Virus record (IMG/VR): IMGVR_UViG_3300047585_000208
Coordinates: 64,001-128,000 of that record
Reading direction: 5' to 3' (one strand)
From: a virus
DNA: 64,000 nucleotides
Shown in pieces: positions 1,697-64,000 of the stretch (within the stretch, counting starts at the first letter, position 1; each line of letters opens with the position of its first letter). Position numbers and translations under genes: made by a program. Below the pieces are notes generated by a model. The model saw nothing but the letters and a program-made list of their open reading frames with translations, was not told the origin of the DNA and searched no databases.

Positions 1697-1748
1697 AAGT
1701 CTAGTTGAGTAATACGTTACTCAAACTGCCTAGTTTAACATTTTCAGA

Positions 1749-5529: not shown

Positions 5530-5874
5530 ATGTTCAATCACGCAATTGCTTGCGCTGTTGAATCACTTGTTTCTGCCGGTTTTATTGATAAGCAGAAGTC
5601 TTCAGAAGCCGAAGCGCACATGCGCGAGTTTTGGAAAAATAAGCTTGTCGATATCTGGTCTGTGGAGGATGTTCAATCTGTTAGACCAGATCTTGATGAA
5701 AAGCAAGCGGTCATGGTGCTTGAACACCTAGATCGCAACTTTGATAGCGAGATTGGAATTAACTGGCAGCGAATTGAACAAGCTGCTATTTACGTCTTTG
5801 GCCCTCTTGAGTTGGATTCCTGTCGCCTCACTTCTTTGTTAGCAGAGGAGCTTGTTGATGGCCGTGCCGATTAG
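5530..5874 (+). CDS. phage hypothetical protein
   Basis: Strong RBS right after a palindrome; WSVEDV...GINW motif. Confidence 0.75.
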   Translation: MFNHAIACAVESLVSAGFIDKQKSSEAEAHMREFWKNKLVDIWSVEDVQSVRPDLDEKQAVMVLEHLDRNFDSEIGINWQRIEQAAIYVFGPLELDSCRLTSLLAEELVDGRAD

Positions 5875-6952
5875 CGCTATCACCGCCGACGACCATCTTG
5901 ATACACATACCTGGGCTAAACATCCTGATCTAGCTGGCGACAGCTACTTTGCTTTCAGCCAAAAAATTGATTACTGTCTTGCCCGTGATCTTTCTCTAAT
6001 CCAAGCCGGGGATCTCTTTAATCGCCGATTTCCTGATCCGGCCTCTGTGTACTTCTTTAATCAGCAGATGCACAGAATGAAACGCGGAGACATCGGTGTT
6101 TATGCCATTCAGGGTAACCACGAGGTCTTTCGTACCAGCCCGTGGCTGAGCTCTAACGCGAGCGGTTGCCCAGCACACGTTCACAAGAAGGCTTTTCAGA
6201 TCGGCGATATCTGGTTCTACGGCCTTGACTTTCAGCCAGCTGAACAGTTAAAACTTGAACTAGTCGCCCTTAGGCAACTTGAACCAAAGCCTCATGTCCT
6301 TATCGCTCATCAGGTTTGGGAGGAGCCGATGGGGCTTAAAGCTGGTCCTGAAGCTGCTTATCGAGACGTCCCAGTTGTGCAGATGCTTATTACTGGTGAT
6401 TTCCATCGCCATTGTGTTACTCGCTGTGTAGGCGTAGACGAGCAGCCTTTAACCGTTCTTAGCCCCGGGTCGCAGTGTCTGCAGAGTAAAGCTGAGGACC
6501 CAAATAAGTATTTCTTTATCCTCTATAGCGACTTGACAGTTGAATCGGTATTGCTTAAGTCAAGGCCACTTGAGCGATTTAAGTTTCGTAATCCGCTTTC
6601 TTTCGAGGATGAGCTAGCTCAAGCTGTCGCTAAAGCTGTTCCTGGCAACGAGTTACCAGAGCACATTGCAAAGCCTATTTTTGTTGTTGAGTATTCAGAG
6701 CTAATTTCGAACGTTCACGCGCGCTTAAAGGCAGCCTTGGCCGGCAAGGTTCATTTGTTTGAAACGCCCATCGAGTCGAGGGCTGCGAAAGCTGAAGTTA
6801 AGCCGGCTATTGCAAAGTGCGGGGCTGTTGAGCAGCTGGAGCTTTTTAAAGAGGATTTGCCTGTTTACGAAACTTCAAAGAGGCTTCTAACTGCCAAAGA
6901 CCCTCTTAGCGAGTGGCAGGAAATTATTTCTGACGCCTCGAAAGGTTCTTGA
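5858..6952 (+). CDS. sbcD: SbcD/Mre11-like metallophosphoesterase nuclease
   Basis: Motifs ADDHL, GDLF, GNHE, HQ, GDFH, PGS; SbcC gene nearby. Confidence 0.9.
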   Translation: MAVPISAITADDHLDTHTWAKHPDLAGDSYFAFSQKIDYCLARDLSLIQAGDLFNRRFPDPASVYFFNQQMHRMKRGDIGVYAIQGNHEVFRTSPWLSSNASGCPAHVHKKAFQIGDIWFYGLDFQPAEQLKLELVALRQLEPKPHVLIAHQVWEEPMGLKAGPEAAYRDVPVVQMLITGDFHRHCVTRCVGVDEQPLTVLSPGSQCLQSKAEDPNKYFFILYSDLTVESVLLKSRPLERFKFRNPLSFEDELAQAVAKAVPGNELPEHIAKPIFVVEYSELISNVHARLKAALAGKVHLFETPIESRAAKAEVKPAIAKCGAVEQLELFKEDLPVYETSKRLLTAKDPLSEWQEIISDASKGS

Positions 6953-10998: not shown

Positions 10999-11936
10999 TG
11001 GAAAAGTTGATTCAGCCTGAGGCTGTAGACGCCGATCGGCTTAAGCTGGTTGTTGATCATCACGGAATAGTGTGGTTTGCCGAAGGAGCCGATTCGCCTC
11101 GAAATTCGGGTTTTAATGTTCAAGATTATATAGCGCAGGCCGATAACCTTCGGGCTGTTTCAGGTATTCGTGTCATAGGCACACACGAGAACTCTGAACT
11201 TCTTCTTCGGCTTTACCGAATGCGGTCTGCCGGGCAATTTCCAATTCTTGAAGTTTGTAGTCCTCTTTGCTGCGAGCCCGCGGCACAGCGGAAAGACCCA
11301 GAAGTGGTGCTTTACAAGATGCGTAACTTCCCAGTTGCCAGGTCTGTGGGTGGCTGGCATGAGTTTGATGCCTCAGATGTTAAGTCTTACTTGCTTGCTT
11401 TGCACTATCAAAAGGGTCTGACAATCACTGAAACCCAGCAAGCGGTTCTCCGTGAGCATCGTATGTGGCTTCCTTTGTCATTCATTCACGATATTGACAT
11501 TGAGGCTTGCTGTACGCTCGTAGGGTTACTCATTGACCCTCGCTGGTACGTCAGCCGAACAGAGCCAGATAGCGAGGGTAAGCTTGAGCAGTTTTTAGGG
11601 CTTAGCACTTCAATTCAATCTGGAGCTGAAAAGGGCCAAGGAAAACTGCACGACCGGTGCCGGCTTGTTCAAAAATGCTGGCGGCGACGTGGAGCTCCTC
11701 GGTGTAATCCAGAAGACCCAAGACAGTTTCTATGGCGTATGTGGAATGAAAAAGGCGGTGGAGCAAGGGCAGACTTGTTTATATCGAAGAAGTTTGTGAG
11801 CTTTTTGAAAGCAGTCTGGACAGACGCTCTTGCTCCAGAGTCTCGGCGTGGCCGGCTAATGGTGTCAAAACATTGGTTTTCTGAACCACGAGATGCTGAA
11901 GCTTTTGATCAATATACTCAGGCTGGTGCCTGTTAA
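10998..11936 (+). CDS. hypothetical protein, possible degenerate IS110-transposase-like fold
   Basis: LSFIHDIDIEACCTLVGLLIDPRWY...LEQFLGLSTSIQSG resembles the IS110 C-terminal domain pattern. Confidence 0.45.
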   Translation: MEKLIQPEAVDADRLKLVVDHHGIVWFAEGADSPRNSGFNVQDYIAQADNLRAVSGIRVIGTHENSELLLRLYRMRSAGQFPILEVCSPLCCEPAAQRKDPEVVLYKMRNFPVARSVGGWHEFDASDVKSYLLALHYQKGLTITETQQAVLREHRMWLPLSFIHDIDIEACCTLVGLLIDPRWYVSRTEPDSEGKLEQFLGLSTSIQSGAEKGQGKLHDRCRLVQKCWRRRGAPRCNPEDPRQFLWRMWNEKGGGARADLFISKKFVSFLKAVWTDALAPESRRGRLMVSKHWFSEPRDAEAFDQYTQAGAC

Positions 11937-11944
11937 GAGGAGTC

Positions 11945-13444
11945 GTGGAAAAACTTACACTTCGTAAATCGGGCGCGGTTCTCGAAATCTCGCTCGACGG
12001 GAAACCTCACGCTTCTTCGGCGCTTCCAGAAGCCGCTAGAAGGATATTAGAGCCTGCCCTTCAATACCAGTACCGCAAATTTTTGTATGGAGCAGATCGC
12101 CGTTGCCCGGTTACTGGCGTTCAGCGCCGGGTTTTAGTAACTGATAAACAACTCTACAGGTACGACGAATACGGCCGCCTTATCACTAACTTTGGATTTG
12201 CCAATCGCGTTCAAAATCTCCTCCGTTCGGTCGGTTACATCCTCGAATGTAAAATTGTACCCAGTGACCGTGAAGCGCACCGGGACTGCGCACGTCCGGA
12301 CGCTTACTCTTTTTGTCCCGAAAACATCTTAGAGCACTTTCAGTTTAGGGAGCGCCAAGACGACGCTATTGCCGCAATTGCAGGGGCTCAAAATGGTCTT
12401 GTCAATGCGGTTACCGGCTTCGGGAAGCTGGTACTTATCGCAATGACATGCCTTGCTTACCCCAAGGCAGTCTTTCATATTGTTACTCGGCGAGCTACGC
12501 TTGTTCATAAGATTCACGACTACTTGACGAAGTACATTCCAGACGTAGGGTTAGTTGGAGCTGGGTCTCGTTATGTCGGTAGACGCGTGACTGTCTCAAC
12601 TGCCGCGAGTATGCACCACTTGTCCCCCTGGGACGCAGATTTTCTTTTGGCCGACGAAGCTCATGAACTTCTTGCTGAAGAGTCAGCTAAATTTTTAGCT
12701 AAGTACGACTGCGCTAGGATGTTTGCCTTTACTGCTTCTCCAACCGGTCGCATGGACGGCACTGACATGCGGATGGAAGCTATTTTTGGAGAGCAGATCT
12801 TTTACCTTCCTTATTGGGAAGCTGTTGAACTTGGATTAGTGGTCCCTATTAGGGTCGAATGGACTGACGTGCTTATGGATCACAACCCAGTCGCTGACAA
12901 AGACGGGGTTCCAAAGAAGCGCTGGGGGCATTGGCGTAATCAGTATCGGAATCAGCTCATTGCTGATAAAGCTAATAGCTTCGATAGCGCCGACCAGGTT
13001 CTTCTTCTGGTTGACACGATTGAGCACGCGTGTTATTTGAAAGCTCATCTTCCTACCTATAAGTTGGTTTACGCACCAGGAGAAGTGGCTAAGACTGATT
13101 TCTATGTGGCTAAAGATCTAGTCAAGGAGGAAGACCTTAAGCTGACACCAAAGCTTGCTGAGCAGTTTCGAAAAGAGTTCGAGGCTGGCGAGCTTAAGAA
13201 GGTCATAGCGACCGGTGTTTGGTCAGTAGGTATTGACCCAGTTCATTTGACAGCGCTTATTCGTGGGTCAGCCGGTAGCTCCGAGATTATGGATATCCAA
13301 GCCCCCGGTCGCGCCTCTAGGCGAGTTCCTGGTAAACACGTTGGGATAGTCTGCGATTTTAAGGATCAATTCGATTCTGCATTTTCAAGTGCCGCTAAAA
13401 AACGAGCTTCACATTACAAAGCTCTTCGTTGGGAGCAAGTATGA
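11945..13444 (+). CDS. superfamily 2 helicase (UvsW-like)
   Basis: TGFGK, DEAH, TAS, GID and QAPGRASR motifs. Confidence 0.9.
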   Translation: MEKLTLRKSGAVLEISLDGKPHASSALPEAARRILEPALQYQYRKFLYGADRRCPVTGVQRRVLVTDKQLYRYDEYGRLITNFGFANRVQNLLRSVGYILECKIVPSDREAHRDCARPDAYSFCPENILEHFQFRERQDDAIAAIAGAQNGLVNAVTGFGKLVLIAMTCLAYPKAVFHIVTRRATLVHKIHDYLTKYIPDVGLVGAGSRYVGRRVTVSTAASMHHLSPWDADFLLADEAHELLAEESAKFLAKYDCARMFAFTASPTGRMDGTDMRMEAIFGEQIFYLPYWEAVELGLVVPIRVEWTDVLMDHNPVADKDGVPKKRWGHWRNQYRNQLIADKANSFDSADQVLLLVDTIEHACYLKAHLPTYKLVYAPGEVAKTDFYVAKDLVKEEDLKLTPKLAEQFRKEFEAGELKKVIATGVWSVGIDPVHLTALIRGSAGSSEIMDIQAPGRASRRVPGKHVGIVCDFKDQFDSAFSSAAKKRASHYKALRWEQV

Positions 13445-17084: not shown

Positions 17085-17381
17085 TTGTTGTTTCCAGCTT
17101 ATCTAGAAATTGACGGTTCGCAAGGAACAGGGTTTACAGCTTATCTAGAAATTGACGATTCGCAAGGAAGAGGGTGGGGCGATGTCAGGGATCACCTGAT
17201 AACTTATTCAGATGGAACCGGCGAAGGAGACGGCGACGCTGGAAGTAGTCTGGGCAATGGCTCCGGTAACGGCGTAGCTTCTGGTGCTGGAAGGCTTATA
17301 TCTGGTAGCGATGGTTTTGCTAAAGGAGCCGGGGTTGGTCGTGGTAATGCAGACGGTTCTGGTGAAGCTGAGTGGCGTTGA
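17085..17381 (+). CDS. small Gly-rich protein with internal 14-aa duplication
   Basis: GxG repeats; palindromes on both sides. Confidence 0.7.
   Translation: MLFPAYLEIDGSQGTGFTAYLEIDDSQGRGWGDVRDHLITYSDGTGEGDGDAGSSLGNGSGNGVASGAGRLISGSDGFAKGAGVGRGNADGSGEAEWR
17095..17175 (+). repeat. 42-bp tandem duplication
   Basis: CAGCTTATCTAGAAATTGACG(G/A)TTCGCAAGGAA(C/G)AGGGT at 17095 and 17137. Confidence 0.9.
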
Positions 17382-25433: not shown

Positions 25434-25507
25434 GTAATGCATTACTCAATTTCTCGTCAGAGAATCATCTGACGCTTATCTAAATTTCATCCAGTAAGGA
25501 GTCTGCT

Positions 25508-29505: not shown

Positions 29506-29557
29506 TGCATTACTCAAACCCTTGGTAGAGGGTTTTTATCTACCAGAAGGGGCGGCT

Positions 29558-29758
29558 ATGAAAGTTGTTTGTGCTTGGTGTAGGGTTCACATGTCTGGGC
29601 CAAGCGAAGATTTGGTTATTAAGCCGGGTTTGTGTAGTGATTGTTACACAAGGCTTGAAAAGGAAATTGAAGAAACTAAGGCCAGCGCTATAGAAGAAGT
29701 AAAGAGCCGCATCATGGAGGTTGACTCTGGTAAAGAAGATGTGGAGTATTGTGAGTAA
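29558..29758 (+). CDS. small Zn-finger protein
   Basis: CAWC...CSDC motifs. Confidence 0.6.
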   Translation: MKVVCAWCRVHMSGPSEDLVIKPGLCSDCYTRLEKEIEETKASAIEEVKSRIMEVDSGKEDVEYCE

Positions 29759-29862
29759 TGACACACGATGGCTTCACAACTGGACAAGCGTCAAAGTATA
29801 TCAAAAGGCACCCTAAGACCTTGCAGACGCTTGATCGTGCCGGCAGATTGCCGGCCAAGTGA
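29758..29862 (+). pseudogene. truncated IS607-type TnpA (MerR-like HTH only)
   Basis: MTHDGFTTGQASKYIKRHPKTLQTLDRAGRLPAK*, directly upstream of tnpB. Confidence 0.6.
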
Positions 29863-29981
29863 GCTTCGACTTGCTTGATCTTGAACAGCAACGAAAATGT
29901 TTTCATTACACGAAGCTTCAACCGTTATGGGCGGCTGATAATCATCGCAAGGGAAAACGCGCTCAAAGAAGTATTAAAGAC

Positions 29982-31142
29982 GTGAACCTGACACACAAGA
30001 TATCCCTGGACGCCACGTTCAAGCAACGGCATTATTTTGCCCGCGCTGCTGGTACGTCCAGGTTTGTTTACAACCACGCTTTAGCCGAATGGAATCGTCA
30101 ATACTCGGCCGGAGGCAGGCCAACTGCTAACGCCTTGAAGCTGCAATTCAATGCGACGTACAAGGAACTATGGCCCTGGATTGAGGATGTTCACCGCGAT
30201 TGCCATTCCCAACCTTTTGCAGATCTTGGCAAAGCGTTCGGCAATTTTTTCAAGGGCCTGGCCAAACGGCCAGTGTTCAAGAAACGCGGTAAAAGCAGGG
30301 CGTCATTTTACGTCGCCAATGACAAGTTTAGCGTGCGTGGCAACACGGTGAGGTTGCCAGTGATCGGCAAAGTGAAGATGCGAGAAGCGTTGCGGTTCAC
30401 CGGCAAGATCAATTCGGCCCGCGTGGTTGAAGAGTGCGGCCAGTGGTTCATTTGTATTTCTGTGGACGTTGGTGAGTTCAGTAAGCCACGCACTGGAGAC
30501 AGCGTTGTGGGCGTGGACGTTGGCGTTAAAGTGTTGGCCACGCTCGACACGGGCGAACAGATTGAGAATCCCCGTCCGCTCAAGAAGGCTCAGAAAAGAT
30601 TACGCCGAGCAAACCGAAAGCTTGCCCGTCGCGTGAAGGGGTCGGCCAACAGGAATAAACAGCGGCAGGTTGTGGCCCGCATCCACCGCCGCATTCGTAA
30701 TATCCGTCACGATGTTCTGCACAAATTCACGTCGCGGCTGGCCAAAAACCACGGCACAGTCGTGATCGAAGACCTCAACGTCAAAGGAATGGTGAAAAAC
30801 CATTGTTTGGCGCAAGCGATCAGCGATGCTGGGTTTGGCATGTTCCGTCAATTTCTCGGCTACAAGGTCGTGATACACGGAACGCGGATTGTCGTGGCGG
30901 ATAGGTTTTATCCCAGTTCGAAGATGTGTTCGCGCTGCGGAAGAGTCAAGTCTGAGCTTTCACTCAGCGAGCGAGTGTTCATTTGCGAATGCGGTAACGT
31001 TATTGACCGCGACTGGAACGCCGCTTTGAACCTGAAACAACTAGGGGCGGCTAGCCCCGAAGTAACGCCTGTGGAGTCGTCATGGGGCGACAGTGAAGCA
31101 GGAACTACACCGCGAGCAGACTCACGTTTGCTCACAAGGTAG
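29982..31142 (+). mobile_element. tnpB: TnpB of IS200/605/IS607-family element
   Basis: AGTSRFVYN HTH; RuvC GVDVG, IEDL and DRDWNAA; Zn finger; PEVTPVE tail. Probable GTG start at 29982. Confidence 0.93.
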
Positions 31143-35669: not shown

Positions 35670-35747
35670 GTAACGCATTACTCAAATTTCGGCGTAGATT
35701 ATAAATCCGCCGCATACGAATCATCGATTTTCAGTTGTGATTATTAA

Positions 35748-45357: not shown

Positions 45358-45409
45358 TTGCCTAGCCGATTAGTTTCTGCTATACTGCCTTAGCAGAAAC
45401 TAATCGGCT
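45358..45409 (+). promoter_or_regulatory. sigma70-like promoter overlapped by a 19-bp inverted repeat
   Basis: TTGCCT-N17-TATACT; IR AGCCGATTAGTTTCTGCTA/TAGCAGAAACTAATCGGCT. Confidence 0.5.
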
Positions 45410-45424
45410 TTCTAGGAGCTCTAA

Positions 45425-48645: not shown

Positions 48646-48678
48646 TTGAGTAACGCATTACTCAGGAGGGGAATTTTA

Positions 48679-49386
48679 ATGTTGATGCAAGAGCTGCTCG
48701 ACATTGCGAAAGAAGAATCTCCGGAGCTTAGTGAGAAATCAGTTCGTCATACGTTGGTTACGCGGTTTGGTGGCGTGGTAAAAGCAGGCTGCCATAGCGT
48801 TAAGGAAAAATGCGGCTGTATACGCGAGCTTCGTTCAGCAGAAATTCCAGCTTCTCGTTGGACTGACTGTCCAGATCATCAATCTGACACTCGCGGAGGT
48901 AGTCCTACTGATCGCGTGTGTCAGTTGCTCAACGATCTTAATTGGACGAGTGATGAGCTTCGGACAGAAAGATGCTTTCCACTTGTGTTTCTGACTGAAA
49001 AACGTGCGGTCGTCGGTTGGCGTAAGAAGTTGCGTAAGGTGCTGTATGCGGAGTTTGGTGACGTCTTAGTTCACGAGTTTGGGCTCTTGGTTCCAACAAT
49101 CAAGGTCGAGACGCTTGTGGAGTTGACCAAGGAGTGTTTGAGATCTCCTGACTGGGCTTTAACGACTATCCAGTCTGCAATTCATGCTACGTATCCTGGT
49201 ATACGCCCTCCTTTGGCTTTATTGACGTTTGTCAAGTCCGCTGAGAAGAACGATGTTTACAAGGCAGTCAAAGCTTTCACATCCGACGCTTCCGGTCAAA
49301 TCTTAATTGGTTCAACCGAAAACGATATCCGCTTTACGAGGATTTTGGAATTATTCATCAAGTGTCATGCAGGGAAAATCGCCTAA
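48679..49386 (+). CDS. hypothetical protein
   Basis: AGGAGG RBS after a palindrome; Cys/His cluster. Confidence 0.7.
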   Translation: MLMQELLDIAKEESPELSEKSVRHTLVTRFGGVVKAGCHSVKEKCGCIRELRSAEIPASRWTDCPDHQSDTRGGSPTDRVCQLLNDLNWTSDELRTERCFPLVFLTEKRAVVGWRKKLRKVLYAEFGDVLVHEFGLLVPTIKVETLVELTKECLRSPDWALTTIQSAIHATYPGIRPPLALLTFVKSAEKNDVYKAVKAFTSDASGQILIGSTENDIRFTRILELFIKCHAGKIA

Positions 49387-49431
49387 CTGTTCTTGCCTCG
49401 GCAGAGGCCTTCCGCCGTAAAAGGAGTCATC

Positions 49432-51153
49432 GTGACTACAGCGTGTATCGCGCCGTCTACTGCAGCTTTCAAAAAGCCTCGCAGTAATCGCCAGTCGAAC
49501 TCATCAGTCATCTGGTCATATTCTGCGAGTAAGCCTCTTACGAATTTGGACGTTATCGAGGATCAGTTCCATCGTGGGTATCAGCTTCGGCGTAATCTTG
49601 TCAGGCTTGAAAATGACCGCAGGAAAAAGCAGCAAGAACTCAGGCAGAAGACTTATCCAAGGCTCATTGAGCTTGAAGAAGCTTTGATCCCGATTGAGAA
49701 AGAAATTCTCGCGATTGAAGGCGGCATTAAGGTTGCACAGAACTCTGAAACGCTTATTAAGTTGAAGGCCGCGCGAAAGCCGTTTCTGGATGAGAAGAGT
49801 AAGCTTGAGGTTGACCTTAGCCTTAATCTGGTATTTCAAGGGGCAGCCGGGATTATCGACAATGCATCAGACGTTTTGAAGAATAACGCTTGTTCTGAAA
49901 GCGGGCTCTACCCAGCAAACATTCAGCAAGTTATCCAGACGGTTAAAAGGACAGGGCTAGCTCCGATCATTGAGCCCGAGTACACCGGTGAAGGAAAAAT
50001 TGCAGTTTATCTACCAGAGGGGCTGTCTCCGGCAGCTTTGTTTGCCGGGCAAAATCGGCTTATCCGGGTAGACCCTGTACCAGCTACCGCCTATGGGCCA
50101 AGACAACCCCACGAGATTGTTGGGCCGACTATTCCGAATCCACGCCGAACGAAAGCTTTCCTGCGAGTCGGGAGAACTGACGCGGAGGCTGTTTGGGCTG
50201 AAATTCCAGTTTTGCTGCATAGACCGTTCCCAGAGGATTGTGCTATTCGGCAGGTTTGGCTGAGTCGGAAAAAGAGCGGGTATAAGTCTGAGTGGAAATT
50301 GCAGTTCACTTGTTGGCACAATCTTACCCGGAAGCGGGCAGATAAAGGTGTTGTTGGGATTGATTTAGGGTGGCGTAAACTCCCGACTGGGCTTCGAGTT
50401 GCTTATTGGGCTGGAGACGACGGTCAGGCTGGCGAGATTGTTATTCCGAATGCACGAATTCATCAGCTTGATCTTGCAGACAACATCGATAGCGAGCGGA
50501 TTGAGATTTGCGCTGAAGAGACTTTGAATCTCAAAAACTGGATTAGCAACCATGCCGTTCCTAATTGGTTGACTGTAGATAGTGTTCCTGAGACGCTCAA
50601 AGGGCTTTTTGATATGGTGTCTGCTTGGATGAGTAATCGATTTGCAGGTGACGAAGCAATTTTCGATCAGCTTATGGCTTGGCGTAAGGAAGAGATGAAA
50701 CTCGCTAATTGGGCAGCTAATCAAAGGAAGAACTTCCAAAATTGGCGCAAGCAGTTTTTCCTGGATCACGTTAGCGATTCAAGAGCGGTTGGTGCCTTTG
50801 CAAAGCTTGCGCAGCGATACCGAACTGCGGTTGTTGAAGATAATCGGCATACACCCCCAAGGCTGAAGGTTCAAGATCGGGGCTTCTCAGAGAAAGAGCG
50901 TGTACAATATCGAAATATTGCTGGTGTGGGGTTGTTTAGCGATATTCTTCGGGACCGCTTGATTGTTAAAGCTGTCCAGGTTCAAAATGCTGCGGTTATG
51001 TGCCATGAGTGCCACCGCATCTGCAAGTGGGAGCAGGTTGAGCTGAAGCATAAGTGTGAGCATCCGGGCTGTCGGGCTGAGTGGGATCAAGATTACAACA
51101 CGAGTAGGAATTTGCTTGCAATCGGTCTTGAAGAGGAAGATAGGGCTGAGTAA
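49432..51153 (+). CDS. Cas12m (type V-U1/C2c4)-like TnpB-superfamily protein
   Basis: Collinear motifs EDQF...LRRNLV, GLYPAN, YTGEGKIAV, LRVG...WAEIPVLLHRPFP, RuvC-I GIDLGWR, RuvC-II VVED, Zn finger, RuvC-III DQDYN. GTG start after AAGGAG. Confidence 0.75.
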   Translation: MTTACIAPSTAAFKKPRSNRQSNSSVIWSYSASKPLTNLDVIEDQFHRGYQLRRNLVRLENDRRKKQQELRQKTYPRLIELEEALIPIEKEILAIEGGIKVAQNSETLIKLKAARKPFLDEKSKLEVDLSLNLVFQGAAGIIDNASDVLKNNACSESGLYPANIQQVIQTVKRTGLAPIIEPEYTGEGKIAVYLPEGLSPAALFAGQNRLIRVDPVPATAYGPRQPHEIVGPTIPNPRRTKAFLRVGRTDAEAVWAEIPVLLHRPFPEDCAIRQVWLSRKKSGYKSEWKLQFTCWHNLTRKRADKGVVGIDLGWRKLPTGLRVAYWAGDDGQAGEIVIPNARIHQLDLADNIDSERIEICAEETLNLKNWISNHAVPNWLTVDSVPETLKGLFDMVSAWMSNRFAGDEAIFDQLMAWRKEEMKLANWAANQRKNFQNWRKQFFLDHVSDSRAVGAFAKLAQRYRTAVVEDNRHTPPRLKVQDRGFSEKERVQYRNIAGVGLFSDILRDRLIVKAVQVQNAAVMCHECHRICKWEQVELKHKCEHPGCRAEWDQDYNTSRNLLAIGLEEEDRAE

Positions 51154-51229
51154 TGCATTACTCAAATGCCACAGCAGAGGCTAAAGTATCTGCTGGACTT
51201 TCAACTCCTTCTAATTGCATGAGCTGATT

Positions 51230-53170
51230 ATGAGCCAGGGTTCTTTCGGTGGAATTTCGTCGTACTCCGGTCTTAACTCTGGGCAATTTCCATCTCCGTG
51301 GTGGGACTATGCTTCGACTGAATTCCCCGAAACGATGCAGTTGGCTCTAAGGTATTGTGAATACATTTTTATAAAGAACGGGATTTACCGGTCAGCCGTT
51401 GATAGACTTCTCTCTTATTTCATTACAGACCTCGACATTTCCGGACCAAAGCTTGGGGAAGACGAGGAAGAGCAGTGGAAGGCCTTTTTCTATAACGATC
51501 TTAGTTACCAGAGCGTTTTACACACAGCTGGCCTAGACGGAGAATGCTACGGCAATTACTTCTGCTCAGTCCTTCCGACTTTTAAGCGTTTCCTTTCTTG
51601 TCCGAAGTGTTTTTACGAAGCGCCACTTCGACGAATCTACAACGACCCGACATTCGCTTTTAAGTGGTCTGACTTTACCCCAAATGCTTTTTGCCCTCGA
51701 TGCAAGACGACGGGCAAATGGAGTATGATTGATCGCCGTACTAGCGAGAATGGCGGGTTTTACATTAAGCGATGGAATCCGCATGAGATGGAGCTTCTTT
51801 GGGACCCGCTCACGGATCAGTGTTCGTACATCTGGAAAGTTCCAGAAGATTACCGCAGAATGATCCGTGAAGGCCACCTCTACCACCTTGAGCGGGCAAC
51901 CAAAGAAGTTATTCAAGCAGTAAAGCACAACAACTATATCCTTTTCGATAAAGATATGGTTTATCACATGCGGGTAGACGCTCTGGCTGGAGTTCGAAAC
52001 AGAGGTTGGGGAATTTCAAAGGTATTGTCGAACTTCAGTCAGGCGTTTTATGTTCAGGTACTCCACCGCTACAATGAGGCTATTGCGCTTGACTATGTGA
52101 TCCCGTTTAGGGTCATTACGCCGGCTCCAGGTGACAAAGGAAGCGGCATTGACCCAATTCTTAGCCAAAACCTTGGCAGTATGGGTGCACAAGTTAACGC
52201 AATGCTTCGTCGTAGACGGCGCGACCCTGCGAGCTGGCATTTCCTTCCTTTTCCGGTTAATTACACAGCGCTTGGCGGCGACGCTAATAAGCTTGCGCCG
52301 TCAGATCTCCTTAAGCTCGGTCGTGAGGATCTTCTCGACAACATCGGTGTTCCGGTTGAACTCTTTAAGGGAACAATGCAGCTACAAGCTGCTCCAGTTG
52401 CTTTGCGGCTTATGGAAGCTGTTCATGCTTCTATTCCGAGGAACCTTAACGGGCTACTTAAGTTCATTACCAAGAAGGTCAGCGCTATCAAGGGCTGGGT
52501 TAAAGCAGACGTTAGGCTAGCTCGTGTTACTCACGCAGACGATCTTAATAGGCAGCAAGCTAAGCTGCAGCTAATGATGGGTGGCCAGATTAGTGCCACT
52601 ACCGGTCTCAAGAGTATTGGCCTAGAGTACCGTGATGAAGTTAAGCGCCAGATGGACGATCAGCACTTTCAAGCTGAAGAGCAAAGCAAGCTTAAAGAAG
52701 AGATGGGGCAAGCTGCAACAATGGAGCAGCTTATCCAATCTCCTCCAGGTGGTGGTGCTCCTGGACAACCTGGTCAGCCTGGACAACAGCAAGGAGGTGC
52801 TCCACAGCAAGGTGGGCAAGGTCAGCCGCAAGGTCAAGGTGGCCCAGCTGCTGGGGCTTATCAATCTGTAACAGCTAATCTTCCGACTGGTCCTAATGAA
52901 AAGGTTAGTCCGGAAGAAATGCAAGAAAAGGCGCAGTATATTTCACAGCAGCTTATGGGCATGGACGCTGGCCAGCGCCAAAGTGAGCTCAGGAAGCTCA
53001 AGCAGGTTGACCCGACTATGCATTCGATTGTTACAGCGTTTATGCGAGATTTGCGGCAGCAAGCTCAGCGGCAAGGCGGAGCTCAGGTATTGGCGCAGCA
53101 ATTTGGAAAATCTGGTGTATGGAAAAATGGATTACTTGGGGTGCCTCACCCAGTTAAGCCTGAAGTTTGA
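51230..53170 (+). CDS. probable portal protein with Zn-ribbon insertion
   Basis: Size and N-terminal YCEY...YRSAVDR pattern; CPKC/CPRC insertion; Q/G-rich tail. Confidence 0.5.
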   Translation: MSQGSFGGISSYSGLNSGQFPSPWWDYASTEFPETMQLALRYCEYIFIKNGIYRSAVDRLLSYFITDLDISGPKLGEDEEEQWKAFFYNDLSYQSVLHTAGLDGECYGNYFCSVLPTFKRFLSCPKCFYEAPLRRIYNDPTFAFKWSDFTPNAFCPRCKTTGKWSMIDRRTSENGGFYIKRWNPHEMELLWDPLTDQCSYIWKVPEDYRRMIREGHLYHLERATKEVIQAVKHNNYILFDKDMVYHMRVDALAGVRNRGWGISKVLSNFSQAFYVQVLHRYNEAIALDYVIPFRVITPAPGDKGSGIDPILSQNLGSMGAQVNAMLRRRRRDPASWHFLPFPVNYTALGGDANKLAPSDLLKLGREDLLDNIGVPVELFKGTMQLQAAPVALRLMEAVHASIPRNLNGLLKFITKKVSAIKGWVKADVRLARVTHADDLNRQQAKLQLMMGGQISATTGLKSIGLEYRDEVKRQMDDQHFQAEEQSKLKEEMGQAATMEQLIQSPPGGGAPGQPGQPGQQQGGAPQQGGQGQPQGQGGPAAGAYQSVTANLPTGPNEKVSPEEMQEKAQYISQQLMGMDAGQRQSELRKLKQVDPTMHSIVTAFMRDLRQQAQRQGGAQVLAQQFGKSGVWKNGLLGVPHPVKPEV

Positions 53171-62424: not shown

Positions 62425-63003
62425 ATGAAACTGGCAACATGGGCTAAAGAGCATGGTATCGCTTACATCACGGCCTGGCGATGGTTCAAATACGGTAAGC
62501 TCCCGGTGCCGGCCATCAAGACGGCAACGGGAATGATCTTGGTAATGCCGTCCGCAGTGCCAACAACGTTGCCAACATTTGTTTATGCTCGCGTGTCATC
62601 ACCGAACAAGAAAGGCGACCTTGACAGGCAGGCGCAACGCGCTGTTGACTTCTGCTCTGCAAAGGGATGGACGGTTGAAGTTGTGGTCAAAGAAATAGCC
62701 TCTGGCATGAATGACAAACGTCGCCGTCTTGATAAGTTGTTGGACCGGGGGCCAGCCCGGTTGGTTATTGAGCACAAAGATCGATTAACTCGTTTCGGTT
62801 TCGGATATTTTGACAAACTGCTTCCAAAGCTTGGATGGGAGCTTGTCGTCATGAATCGAGATAGCGAAGCCAAGGACGACATGATGAAGGATCTTATAGC
62901 CGTCATTACCAGTTTTTGTTGTCGGTTATATGGATTGCGGCGAGGGCAGAAAAAAGCCAAGGAACTTAAGGACGCATTGCCATGCGAAGAGCCTGTAAAA
63001 TAA
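62425..63003 (+). CDS. tnpA: IS607-family serine recombinase TnpA
   Basis: MKLATWAK...TAWRW HTH; YARVSS, EIASGMN, DRLTRFG and RLYGLR motifs. Confidence 0.93.
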   Translation: MKLATWAKEHGIAYITAWRWFKYGKLPVPAIKTATGMILVMPSAVPTTLPTFVYARVSSPNKKGDLDRQAQRAVDFCSAKGWTVEVVVKEIASGMNDKRRRLDKLLDRGPARLVIEHKDRLTRFGFGYFDKLLPKLGWELVVMNRDSEAKDDMMKDLIAVITSFCCRLYGLRRGQKKAKELKDALPCEEPVK

Positions 63004-64000
63004 GCCTGGAGTTCGTGACTGCCAGCAAGCGTCGGCGCATCGACGCTTTGCTTCGTCGTTATCGGTCGGCGGTCAATTTCTACGTCAATGAATGCTGGTT
63101 TCGCGACGGCAGCTTGAACGCCGTTACTTTGACAACTCTCCATGATAGTCTCCTTTCGCAGCGGTACAAATCTCAGGCGCTCAAGCAAGCTACCGAGATG
63201 GTGGCCGCGACTCGAAAATCAGCGAAGGCCCTCGGCAAGACAGCTTCGTGCCCACATTTCACGGGTGCCGCAATCCTTGACGCCAAGTTTGTTGACGTGG
63301 TTATTGAGGATCGTGGGCCTTTGTTTGACGTGTTCGTGAAGCTGTCTGGGCTTGTCAAGGGTAAGCGTATAACTCTTCCCCTTAAAGCCACAGCGGTATT
63401 GCGAAAGTGGCTCAATGTTAATGACGCGCGCCTCATTCAAGGATGCGCATTGTCCGAGACAGGAATAGTTCTTTGGGTTGAGGCAAGCGCTCCGGCGCAT
63501 CGCAAGGAAGGTGATGTTATTGCTGTCGATCTTGGCCTGTGCAAGCTTGTGGCCACATCCGAAGGCAAGTTTCTTGGCACTGAGTTCCGTGCGATCCGCG
63601 ACAAAATCAATCGTAGAAAGATGGGCAGCAAGGGGCGTAGCCAAGCGCATCGCGAGCGTGACAACCTTATCGGGTATGTACTGAATCGCCTTCCTTGGCA
63701 TCGCCTGAAAGCAATAGGCCGCGAGGATCTTCGCGGCATCAAGCATGGAAAGAAGCCCGGTCGCGGGAAATCTTTCCGTAGAGCCATCGCACCTTGGGTA
63801 CATCGCCAGGTTGCCGAACGTCTCGATAACAAGGCCCTGGAGAACGGTGTTCTTCCAGTCGTCTACGAGGCCAGAGGCACTTCCCGATCGTGCCCCGAGT
63901 GTGGCAGTTGCGACAGTGGTAATCGTAAGGGAGAATCCTTTCTGTGCTTGTCCTGCGGCCACGCAGAGGACGCCGATATTGTCGGAGCGCGGAATGGGCT
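62982..64000 (+). CDS. tnpB: IS607-associated TnpB, 3' end outside window
   Basis: ATG at 62982 overlapping tnpA; open to the window end; AVDLG, REDL, CPEC/CLSC and DADIVGARN motifs. Confidence 0.9.
   Translation, partial: MRRACKISLEFVTASKRRRIDALLRRYRSAVNFYVNECWFRDGSLNAVTLTTLHDSLLSQRYKSQALKQATEMVAATRKSAKALGKTASCPHFTGAAILDAKFVDVVIEDRGPLFDVFVKLSGLVKGKRITLPLKATAVLRKWLNVNDARLIQGCALSETGIVLWVEASAPAHRKEGDVIAVDLGLCKLVATSEGKFLGTEFRAIRDKINRRKMGSKGRSQAHRERDNLIGYVLNRLPWHRLKAIGREDLRGIKHGKKPGRGKSFRRAIAPWVHRQVAERLDNKALENGVLPVVYEARGTSRSCPECGSCDSGNRKGESFLCLSCGHAEDADIVGARNG

Follow-up and report, generated by a model that had tools for sequence, protein, structure and literature searches.

The window analysed in this study, a 64,000-nt stretch of viral DNA, forms the second half (positions 64001-128000) of the virus contig G000:C1, which is 137,890 bp in full, linear according to IMG/VR and ~67% complete as estimated by CheckV, with a GC content of 48% and nearly all genes on the + strand. 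It contains a gene of the Cas12m family, the subject of this study, which lies among short repeat-like hairpins (hereafter called handles) that recur elsewhere in the contig (Table 1). The reading frame (49393..51153, +) is open over 586 codons counted from TTG, and the GTG at 49432, located 5 nt 3' of AAAGGAG, gives a product of 573 aa. This agreed with an earlier sequence-only reading, which had proposed a protein of about 573 aa at 49432, preceded by a phage-type ribosome-binding site (RBS). The same reading had extended the gene to 51200; the stop codon (TAA) ends at 51153, inside a copy of an 18-bp palindrome, so that the proposed end lies 47 nt inside the next leader. A handle begins 9 nt past the stop codon and ends 31 nt before the ATG of a portal-like gene, which is 77 nt past the stop codon (a gap of ~76 nt).

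Table 1 Features of the window related to the Cas12m-family gene and to the handles (window coordinates).
Feature	Position	Strand	Remarks
Cas12m-family gene, intact	49432..51153	+	573 aa; H263/R264, D311, E469, D554 and the zinc-finger cysteines C524, C527, C542, C547 kept
Best handle adjoining the gene	51163..51199	+	3-bp pseudoknot GCC/GGC, 7-bp stem CAGCAGA/TCTGCTG, GAC end
Leader between handle and portal-like ATG, 31 nt	51199..51229	+	would-be guide if the handle makes a CRISPR RNA (crRNA)
Weak handle	49390..49421	+	GCC / CGGCAGA / GGC / ... / CGCCG; R3 15.4 bits, E 0.3 genome-wide
Handle copy	25446..25478	+	R3 26.9 bits, training row; directly 3' of palindrome, 30 nt before next start codon
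Handle copy	29514..29549	+	R3 30.9 bits, training row; directly 3' of palindrome, 9 nt before ATG
Handle copy	35681..35716	+	R3 21.1 bits, E 0.009, not a training row; directly 3' of palindrome
Handle-like copy, weakest listed, doubtful	45382..45414	+	R3 13.7 bits, E 0.9; 11 nt before start codon 45425
Palindrome TGAGTAA-N4-TTACTCA, 18 bp	48647..48664	.	3' of terminator-like hairpin, 5' of the upstream ORF's RBS
18-bp palindrome supplying the Cas12m stop TAA	51147..51164	.	
Upstream open reading frame (ORF), 235 aa, no family assigned	48679..49386	+	ends 45 nt 5' of Cas12m start codon
Portal-like gene	51230..53170	+	directly downstream of Cas12m gene
Three TnpB-type genes	3-986, 29859-31142, 62982-63998	+	PF07282 at 54-75 bits

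When the protein was compared with the chains of the Protein Data Bank (PDB) by phmmer, the best match was 23vw_A, a "CRISPR-associated DNA-binding protein Cas12m" (E 6.2e-38, residues 41-578). Weaker, partial matches were observed with 23vu_A (E 1.3e-5) and 8hio_A (E 1.5e-4), UnCas12m4a and Cas12m2 being among the weaker matches. Among 5.8 billion proteins searched, 31 metagenome relatives showed 23-29% identity; nearly all are 550-640 aa long, and conserved columns were common to all of them and the window protein. In a 26-row alignment (A1), the motifs SGLY, GEGKIAV, W..IPVLLHRPFP, GIDLGWR, VVEDN, and WDQDYN were all present in conserved columns, which bore out the collinearity with Cas12m noted in the sequence-only reading. 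The window protein kept 16 of the 16 invariant columns of A1, including R264, P267, D311, G313, W314, R315, C527, C542, C547, D552, and D554, and D311, D552, D554, C527, C542, and C547 were invariant in 26/26 rows. In contrast, the TnpB model NF038281 of NCBIfam gave 11.7 bits against a cut-off of 425, PF01385 (OrfB_IS605) and PF12323 (helix-turn-helix, HTH) had no match in the protein, and the match to the TNB domain of Pfam (14.2 bits) was below the cut-off. Because the match to 23vw_A is full-length and the family columns are conserved, while the TnpB models score weakly, the protein is, on these comparisons, a member of the Cas12m (type V-M) family and not an ordinary TnpB, as that reading had proposed; of the family's marks that were compared, the array alone was missing. 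Neither the Y1 transposase gene tnpA (PF01797) nor cas1 (PF01867) was found in the 137,890-bp contig. The earlier statements that tnpA and evident insertion sequence (IS) ends are lacking held for the contig as well, the latter without any modelling of IS ends.

D311, E469, and D554 aligned with the D, E, and D of 23vw, and E469 (in VVEDN) falls where most relatives, too, have Glu, so that the RuvC residues reported as retained are indeed retained. The accompanying premise, that the RuvC of characterised Cas12m proteins is altered, found no support. In Omura 2023 (PMC10442227), four Cas12m clades are described, two of which include D-E-D, and the conversion of HDD to DED in Cas12m2 did not restore cutting. 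Bigelyte 2024 (PMC11013384) reports four D-E-D variants among eight tested, with no dsDNA nuclease activity, orthologues with D-E-D, H-D-D, and N-D-D that bind dsDNA without cleaving it, and pre-crRNA processing that does not depend on the RuvC Asp. Since D-E-D clades are known and were non-cutting when tested, and since 23vw is itself D-E-D, the intact triad is neither unusual nor a sign of cleavage; D-E-D is ordinary for Cas12m and predicts nothing about cutting. The motif LLHRPFP carries a His-Arg pair (H263/R264), of which R264, together with P267, is invariant in A1. This pair is presumably equivalent, judging from the alignment, to H269/R270 of Cas12m2. The latter pair reads the last base of the repeat and is implicated in pre-crRNA processing.

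One scan with A1 showed that 60 IMG/VR loci encode relatives with 21-33% identity, indicating that phage-borne Cas12m is common in viral metagenomes, and in GenBank the Virus Rctr197k (KX853510) contains a relative with an annotated 1.5-kb CRISPR region directly after the gene. With an array finder and the family-wide repeat model R1, an array or repeats were detected in the fetched locus, within 6 kb, for 42 of the 45 relatives used for the tree; the arrays, on the strand of the gene, usually begin 100-250 nt past its end. An alignment of 31 relatives' repeats (A2) was nearly gap-free and supported the two helices of a pseudoknot, 83.5% of the cells being paired as compared with 63.3% in shuffles (0/500 as high) and far above slid controls. 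This layout fits the description of the crRNA scaffold of Cas12m2 in PMC10442227. In a quick IQ-TREE tree of 46 proteins, the window protein fell in a clade of nine (SH-aLRT 100) with L002, L003, L005, L007, L008, L016, L024, and L029, the repeats of which are 36 nt long and consist of a pseudoknot and a hairpin, with the GAC end as the best-conserved part. Judged by this tree, the window gene is nested in a phage-borne clade in which an array normally accompanies the gene. Its end branch is long (1.96 against a median of 0.97; long rows are placed less certainly), which fits a changed role. The long branch and the missing array would also suit a decaying remnant without function, a reading to which we give hardly any credence, as against it stand a 573-codon frame that is open and has an RBS, and all 16 invariant family columns of A1, which have been kept.

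Single repeats and distant arrays were also observed within this family. In L005/L006, which belong to the window protein's clade and come from two samples, no array was present in 13.6 kb, and a single repeat was found 33 nt 5' of the Cas12m start codon (27.7 bits, E 3e-4 with R2, a model of six repeats from the window protein's clade only, alignment A3). Record G005 (L008) has two arrays and, tens of kilobases off on the other strand, high-scoring single repeats; record G004 (L024) has an array and four single repeats. In record G001 (L007; 192 kb, 87% complete), the only repeats are ~27 kb from the Cas12m gene, and L001 and L023 have second arrays kilobases away. As separate observations, two lone repeats of G004 (L099/L100; 39194-39229 and 38613-38647, minus strand) stand behind an identical 40-nt sequence that may be a promoter. 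In L008, a run of eight repeats lies 5' of the Cas12m gene (5578-5953, corresponding to G005 84720-85095) with 37-55 nt from start to start; its spacers of ~1-19 nt are unlike the normal downstream array of that phage. A lone near-perfect repeat of the same record (L095, G005:66325-66360) is followed within the next 30 nt by a sequence resembling a tRNA T-arm, GGGGTTCGACTCCCC, which may be a guide or an attachment-site remnant.

In the window phage, no CRISPR array was detected by TRF, and a seed-and-extend scan of the full 137,890-bp contig gave none either, extending the absence of an array noted earlier to the rest of the contig. The repeat models R1 and R2 gave no clustered matches in the contig. 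However, the gene had been called an orphan on this basis, and that description did not hold, as handles resembling the repeats of its own Cas12m clade flank the gene and are scattered over the contig.

These handles were noticed as hairpins of one plan that follow several of the 61 palindrome copies of the contig. The loop opens with three bases that pair with the three just 5' of the stem, and the pairing bases vary between copies (GCC/GGC, CCT/AGG, TTC/GAA, CCC/GGG, GCT/AGC, and others). Eleven phage copies, the Cas12m-adjacent one included, were aligned (A4), and the model R3 was built from them; the general pseudoknot descriptor was loose (42 + strand and 34 - strand matches, as compared with 10-27 in ten shuffles) and served for the choice of rows only. 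R3 was then searched against eight clade loci, covering both strands of 96 kb with the filters off (E<=5); arrays make up ~1.5% of this search space. Among the 53 matches, 43 were array repeats (L008, L024, L003, L016, L029, and L002), one was a lone repeat of L008, and nine lay elsewhere. The best 31 of the 53 were all array repeats, matched over the full length and on the gene's strand, the top one with 27 bits (E 1.6e-4). The phage hairpins and the clade repeats have in common the two-helix pseudoknot layout and an AGAGGC...TCTG core.

On its own contig, R3 gave 19 matches at E<=1, and 19/19 were on the + strand. Nine were among the training rows and ten were new, including the near-consensus GCTT-CGGCAGA-GGC-GTA-TCTGCCG. 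The midpoints of only two copies fell inside + strand ORFs of at least 100 aa, although such ORFs occupy 85% of the contig, and no copy was within 100 nt of another. In 7/19 copies the handle starts where a palindrome ends. The matches end 27-38 nt before the next start codon in nine copies, 9-12 nt in four, and 65-173 nt in six, and most copies had no U-tract. A profile of sequence without pairing, made from 16 copies with both Cas12m-adjacent ones left out, was searched against the 61 loci, and 27 of its 39 matches at E<=10 were array repeats; therefore, the likeness does not hang on the Cas12m-adjacent copy. Taken together, these searches show that diverged single copies of a handle resembling the clade's repeat are scattered over the phage, nearly all between genes.

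The copy next to the Cas12m gene is the best-formed of those adjoining it. Its letters (51165-51198) read AATGCCA-CAGCAGA-GGCTAAAGTA-TCTGCTG-GAC, directly 3' of the palindrome that contains the stop codon, and R3 gave 29.8 bits for it, the copy being a training row of that model. When the repeats of the 31 relatives were compared with the contig by the Smith-Waterman method, this site ranked 14th to 27th of ~11,000 windows with the repeats of L003, L016, and L029, and never first. On the other side of the gene, the weak handle ends 11 nt before the GTG, abutting the RBS. R2 also aligned the copy at 29511-29546 gap-free with the 36-nt repeat of the relatives (8.8 bits, rank 7 in the window). 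Two other candidates were discarded: a repeat-like stretch within the Cas12m gene, covering the codons that immediately precede the RuvC Glu (50797-50831; R1 11.9 and R2 9.8 bits), was at the level of other chance matches and is probably one of them, and a 13-nt identity between 29535-29574 and 50006-50045 is expected among all pairs in 64 kb.

Several points weigh against the reading set out below, in which Cas12m acts on these handles. The 93.6% pairing of A4 is circular, since most rows were picked with the pairing descriptor, and the E-values of covariance models are rough. The profile of sequence without pairing had no individually significant match (best E 1.1). The family-wide R1 missed the phage copies and gave only 3.0 bits for the gene-adjacent handle, and, besides two copies, R2 gave the phage hairpins <=3.3 bits on the right strand. 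For the handle at 51163-51199, R2 gave 11.9 bits, placing it second in the window and fourth in the contig, but at an E of ~0.9-1.9 it is not significant alone; the site is notable by position, because it is on the right strand and in the ~76-nt gap where the relatives place their arrays. A GAC end was present in the copy 3' of the Cas12m stop codon only. No related phage was available for comparison: the 18-bp palindrome occurred in 59 metagenome stretches, none of which shared DNA with the contig (blastn, E 1e-10) or a protein with it (tblastn, E 1e-6, 185 ORFs). Finally, an ordinary array may lie in the missing third of the genome, because the contig is ~67% complete and the array of G001 is ~27 kb from its gene.

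The last point leads to the main rival reading, that of the locus as an ordinary phage type V-M system, with its array in the unsequenced third and guides directed against competitors or host defences, the hairpins being unrelated regulatory or terminator-like structures. The CheckV estimate and the linear record allow for it, as do the distant repeats of L007 and the second arrays of L001 and L023; the failure of R1 to recognise the hairpins and the position of several of them 3' of palindromes, where terminators would also sit, speak for it as well. Nevertheless, the model built from the hairpins found clade CRISPR repeats almost exclusively (44/53), the hairpins have the pseudoknot layout and AGAGGC...TCTG core of those repeats, and a U-tract is missing from most of them. 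Furthermore, arrays usually start 100-250 nt after the gene, whereas here the portal-like gene begins at 77 nt, and an array elsewhere would not by itself explain the scattered copies. We regard this reading as unlikely, though it deserves to be kept in view.

In published work, Cas12m is described as binding a single crRNA through the pseudoknot scaffold, trimming the pre-crRNA near the start of the repeat, and binding DNA flanked by a protospacer-adjacent motif (PAM) without cutting it. According to a preprint (10.64898/2026.03.26.714355), PmCas12m additionally cuts 17-18 nt into the guide. We hold, with a confidence only a little above even, that the Cas12m of the window phage binds the scattered handles in phage transcripts, either processing or controlling mRNAs or making fixed guides from them. 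The protein would still bind the handle, because it retains the two residues, His and Arg, with which Cas12m2 reads the final base of the handle, and it would meet the handles as they are transcribed within the polycistronic mRNAs of the phage.

Two routes are conceivable from this point. At the RNA level, trimming would occur at the handle, which in seven cases directly follows the palindrome hairpin closing the preceding cistron. A second cut would fall ~17-18 nt beyond the handle, shortly before the RBS in nine leaders. The protein might instead simply occupy the leader. Either action would determine where mRNAs end, how stable they are, or how they are translated, and the copy at the RBS of the Cas12m gene itself would provide autoregulation. 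At the DNA level, the handle and the next 17-20 nt would serve as a fixed guide with which DNA is bound but not cut, and the phage's own copy would be protected, being flanked by a handle instead of a PAM. We favour the RNA-level route, because what would serve as guide is working leader sequence without a second target in the contig, and because a GAC end is missing from most copies. In the contig, the 16-17-nt stretches after the 19 copies gave matches no better than those of shuffled controls, except for the copy that stands before a palindrome. As a more specific proposal, which we make tentatively and do not regard as probable, the effector may have been taken over as a regulator of the phage's own mRNAs, the array having gone and the repeat having been kept as ~19 diverged leader handles, those before the portal-like gene and before cas12m among them, at which crRNA binding and trimming by the protein would define mRNA 5' ends, stability, or translation. 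The domestication suggested in the sequence-only reading is plausible; the arguments given there did not show it.

The stretch that follows the gene-adjacent handle was examined as a guide in its own right. For 51199..51229, the contig contained no other match with <=3 mismatches over 16-18 nt apart from weak partial ones, and no exact 20-mer was found in viral contigs. Genome contigs gave one exact 20-mer match, with ~1 expected by chance. This match, an identity over 21 nt in a Desulfuromonas metagenome-assembled genome (L070, 716-735), covers the first codons of an acetolactate-synthase-like gene in antisense and was treated as chance. The locus could also be viewed as a domesticated effector resembling TldR, guide-less or with a single guide, that represses one fixed target and perhaps cuts through its D-E-D triad. 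The contig has no array, the D-E-D residues are intact, one well-formed handle with a GAC end directly follows the gene, and L005 likewise has one handle before its gene, all of which would agree with this view. We nevertheless find it improbable: no target was found for the would-be guide in the contig or in viral and genome contigs, tested D-E-D Cas12m proteins do not cut dsDNA (PMC11013384), TldRs are defined by lost RuvC residues, and 18 further handle-like copies would be left unexplained.

Another view of the handles is that they are decoys, RNA anti-CRISPRs (Racrs) that soak up a host Cas12m, the Cas12m gene of the phage being incidental. Viral solitary repeat units (SRUs) are known, and according to PMC10651486 many of them act as Racrs, being intergenic and mimicking repeats. 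In that description viral SRUs have no associated cas genes, and a promoter often lies directly upstream of them, whereas the present phage has a cognate cas12m, and its 19 copies are mutually diverged and stand inside the leaders of co-directional genes. This view therefore seems to us rather improbable.

The palindrome that directly precedes seven of the handles has the form TGAGTAA-YGCR-TTACTCA, with 38 exact copies and 61 at <=3 mismatches in the contig, located at gene junctions (e.g., window 1706-1723). It often supplies a stop codon and often precedes an RBS, and no exact match was found in other viral contigs. It was also tried as a CRISPR repeat and rejected, as its 8-9-bp stem and 2-4-nt loop are unlike the Cas12m handle. 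In one place outside the window, 52 kb before its start, a handle copy (contig 11930-11964) is followed 1 nt later by a palindrome at the position of a guide, the only such case among the 61 palindromes. If this handle yielded a crRNA with the palindrome as a 17-18-nt guide, Cas12m would be directed to all 61 junction palindromes as a genome-wide roadblock. The adjacency itself is observed, the length of the palindrome equals the 17-18-nt guide or heteroduplex of Cas12m2 and PmCas12m (PMC10442227; 10.64898/2026.03.26.714355), and many palindromes precede an A-rich RBS, giving the opposite strand a T-rich 5' flank. Still, the arrangement depends on one weak copy (17.2 bits, E 0.1) that is the sole example among 61, the guide would fold on itself, and the flanks are explained by the RBSs, so that we consider it very unlikely. 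Apart from this, two apparent joints (48664/5 to 51140/6) were considered as deletions and rejected, their 20-nt sides being the shared palindrome, and a 42-nt unit is present in two tandem copies (93% alike) at window 17090-17175, in an intergenic gap 3' of a palindrome.

Of the genes around the Cas12m gene, the upstream 235-aa ORF gave no match in Pfam or PHROGs, and its ESM Atlas scores were <0.85. Neither this ORF nor five other neighbours had a homologue in the loci of 61 relatives. Its start is preceded by a terminator-like hairpin and then by a palindrome copy (48647..48664), which likely marks the start of a two-gene unit ending with the Cas12m gene. The downstream gene had been described as portal-like; this found partial support, in that the ESM Atlas gave feature scores of 0.92-0.93 to portal clusters and TM-scores of 0.54-0.59 to clusters bearing Portal_Mu, while Pfam and PHROGs gave no match and the portal call remains an ESM Atlas lead only. 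In an RNA library of a peat metatranscriptome (run X2), contigs matched this gene without differences at 51317-51528 and 51794-52063; the matches covered only parts of the portal-like gene, and none fell on the Cas12m gene. All the read runs consisted of contigs, and hence transcript ends and levels were not readable from them. Short identical pieces of the stretch were also observed in two other metagenomes, X3 (freshwater) and X4 (peat). The three TnpB genes counted in the window by the sequence-only reading were confirmed by TnpB models, the middle one (29859-31142) additionally matching OrfB_IS605 (PF01385, 113 bits) and an HTH domain. No tRNA or Rfam family matches were present.

Cas12m has been studied as a natural compact programmable DNA binder, and its known biology is the array-guided silencing of plasmids and phages. 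Cas12m itself, its D-E-D variants, phage-borne type V-M systems, viral solitary repeats (PMC10651486), and standalone repeats beside cas12a are already known. An array-less Cas12m with its handle spread over the gene leaders of its own phage was not found in published texts, supplementary lists excepted. If the proposal of an mRNA regulator is true, a CRISPR effector would have been turned to the control of virus genes, as a sequence-specific RNA-processing factor of the virus, and the ~19 natural handle variants would define what the protein tolerates. In addition, two impressions are corrected by the present comparisons, namely that an intact D-E-D triad would be special and that phage-borne Cas12m would be uncommon in viral metagenomes.

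The TnpB and TldR proteins have a common ancestry with the window protein in the RuvC/TNB core, and three true TnpB genes are present in the same window. The Cas12m gene differs from TnpB in that it has no OrfB_IS605 or HTH match, no tnpA in its contig, and other genes on both sides, 45 nt upstream and 77 nt downstream; it differs from TldR in that the RuvC triad is kept. The SRUs and Racrs (Camara-Wilpert 2023, PMC10651486) are likewise single intergenic repeat-like units, whereas the window phage has a cognate effector gene and many diverged copies, all of them gene-oriented and inside leaders. Shmakov 2023 (bioRxiv 10.1101/2023.03.03.530964) described standalone repeat-like regulatory elements in CRISPR-cas loci, including repeats next to cas12a, CreR-type autorepression, and the long tracrRNA of Cas9. 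The lone repeat that adjoins the effector gene on its 5' side, in the window phage as in L005, is similar, and an autoregulatory role of such a repeat is possible. The elements of the window phage differ in being spread over the genome instead of confined to a cas locus, and in that no partial match of the adjacent sequence to a promoter turned up in the contig.

Other phage Cas12m systems, namely MvCas12m of the myxophage MV-1, Rctr197k, and the 60 IMG/VR loci, are similar in being phage-borne without adaptation genes, and they differ in that arrays adjoin their genes. MvCas12m is reported as D-E-D in a preprint (10.64898/2026.09.14.751636), in which MV-1 is called the first phage Cas12m, a claim that is overtaken by the public data of Rctr197k and IMG/VR. 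The type V-M effectors (MmCas12m2, GoCas12m, MsCas12m, PmCas12m, and 23vw) resemble the window protein in full-length homology, in a size of ~570-600 aa, in the RuvC motifs, the TNB zinc finger, and the His-Arg pair in the WED-equivalent motif, in D-E-D, as in two of the four clades given in PMC10442227, and in a handle composed of a pseudoknot and a stem. The identity between the window protein and any relative found is only 24-33%, and the window phage differs from these systems in having no adjacent array, with single diverged handles in the leaders of ~19 genes instead.

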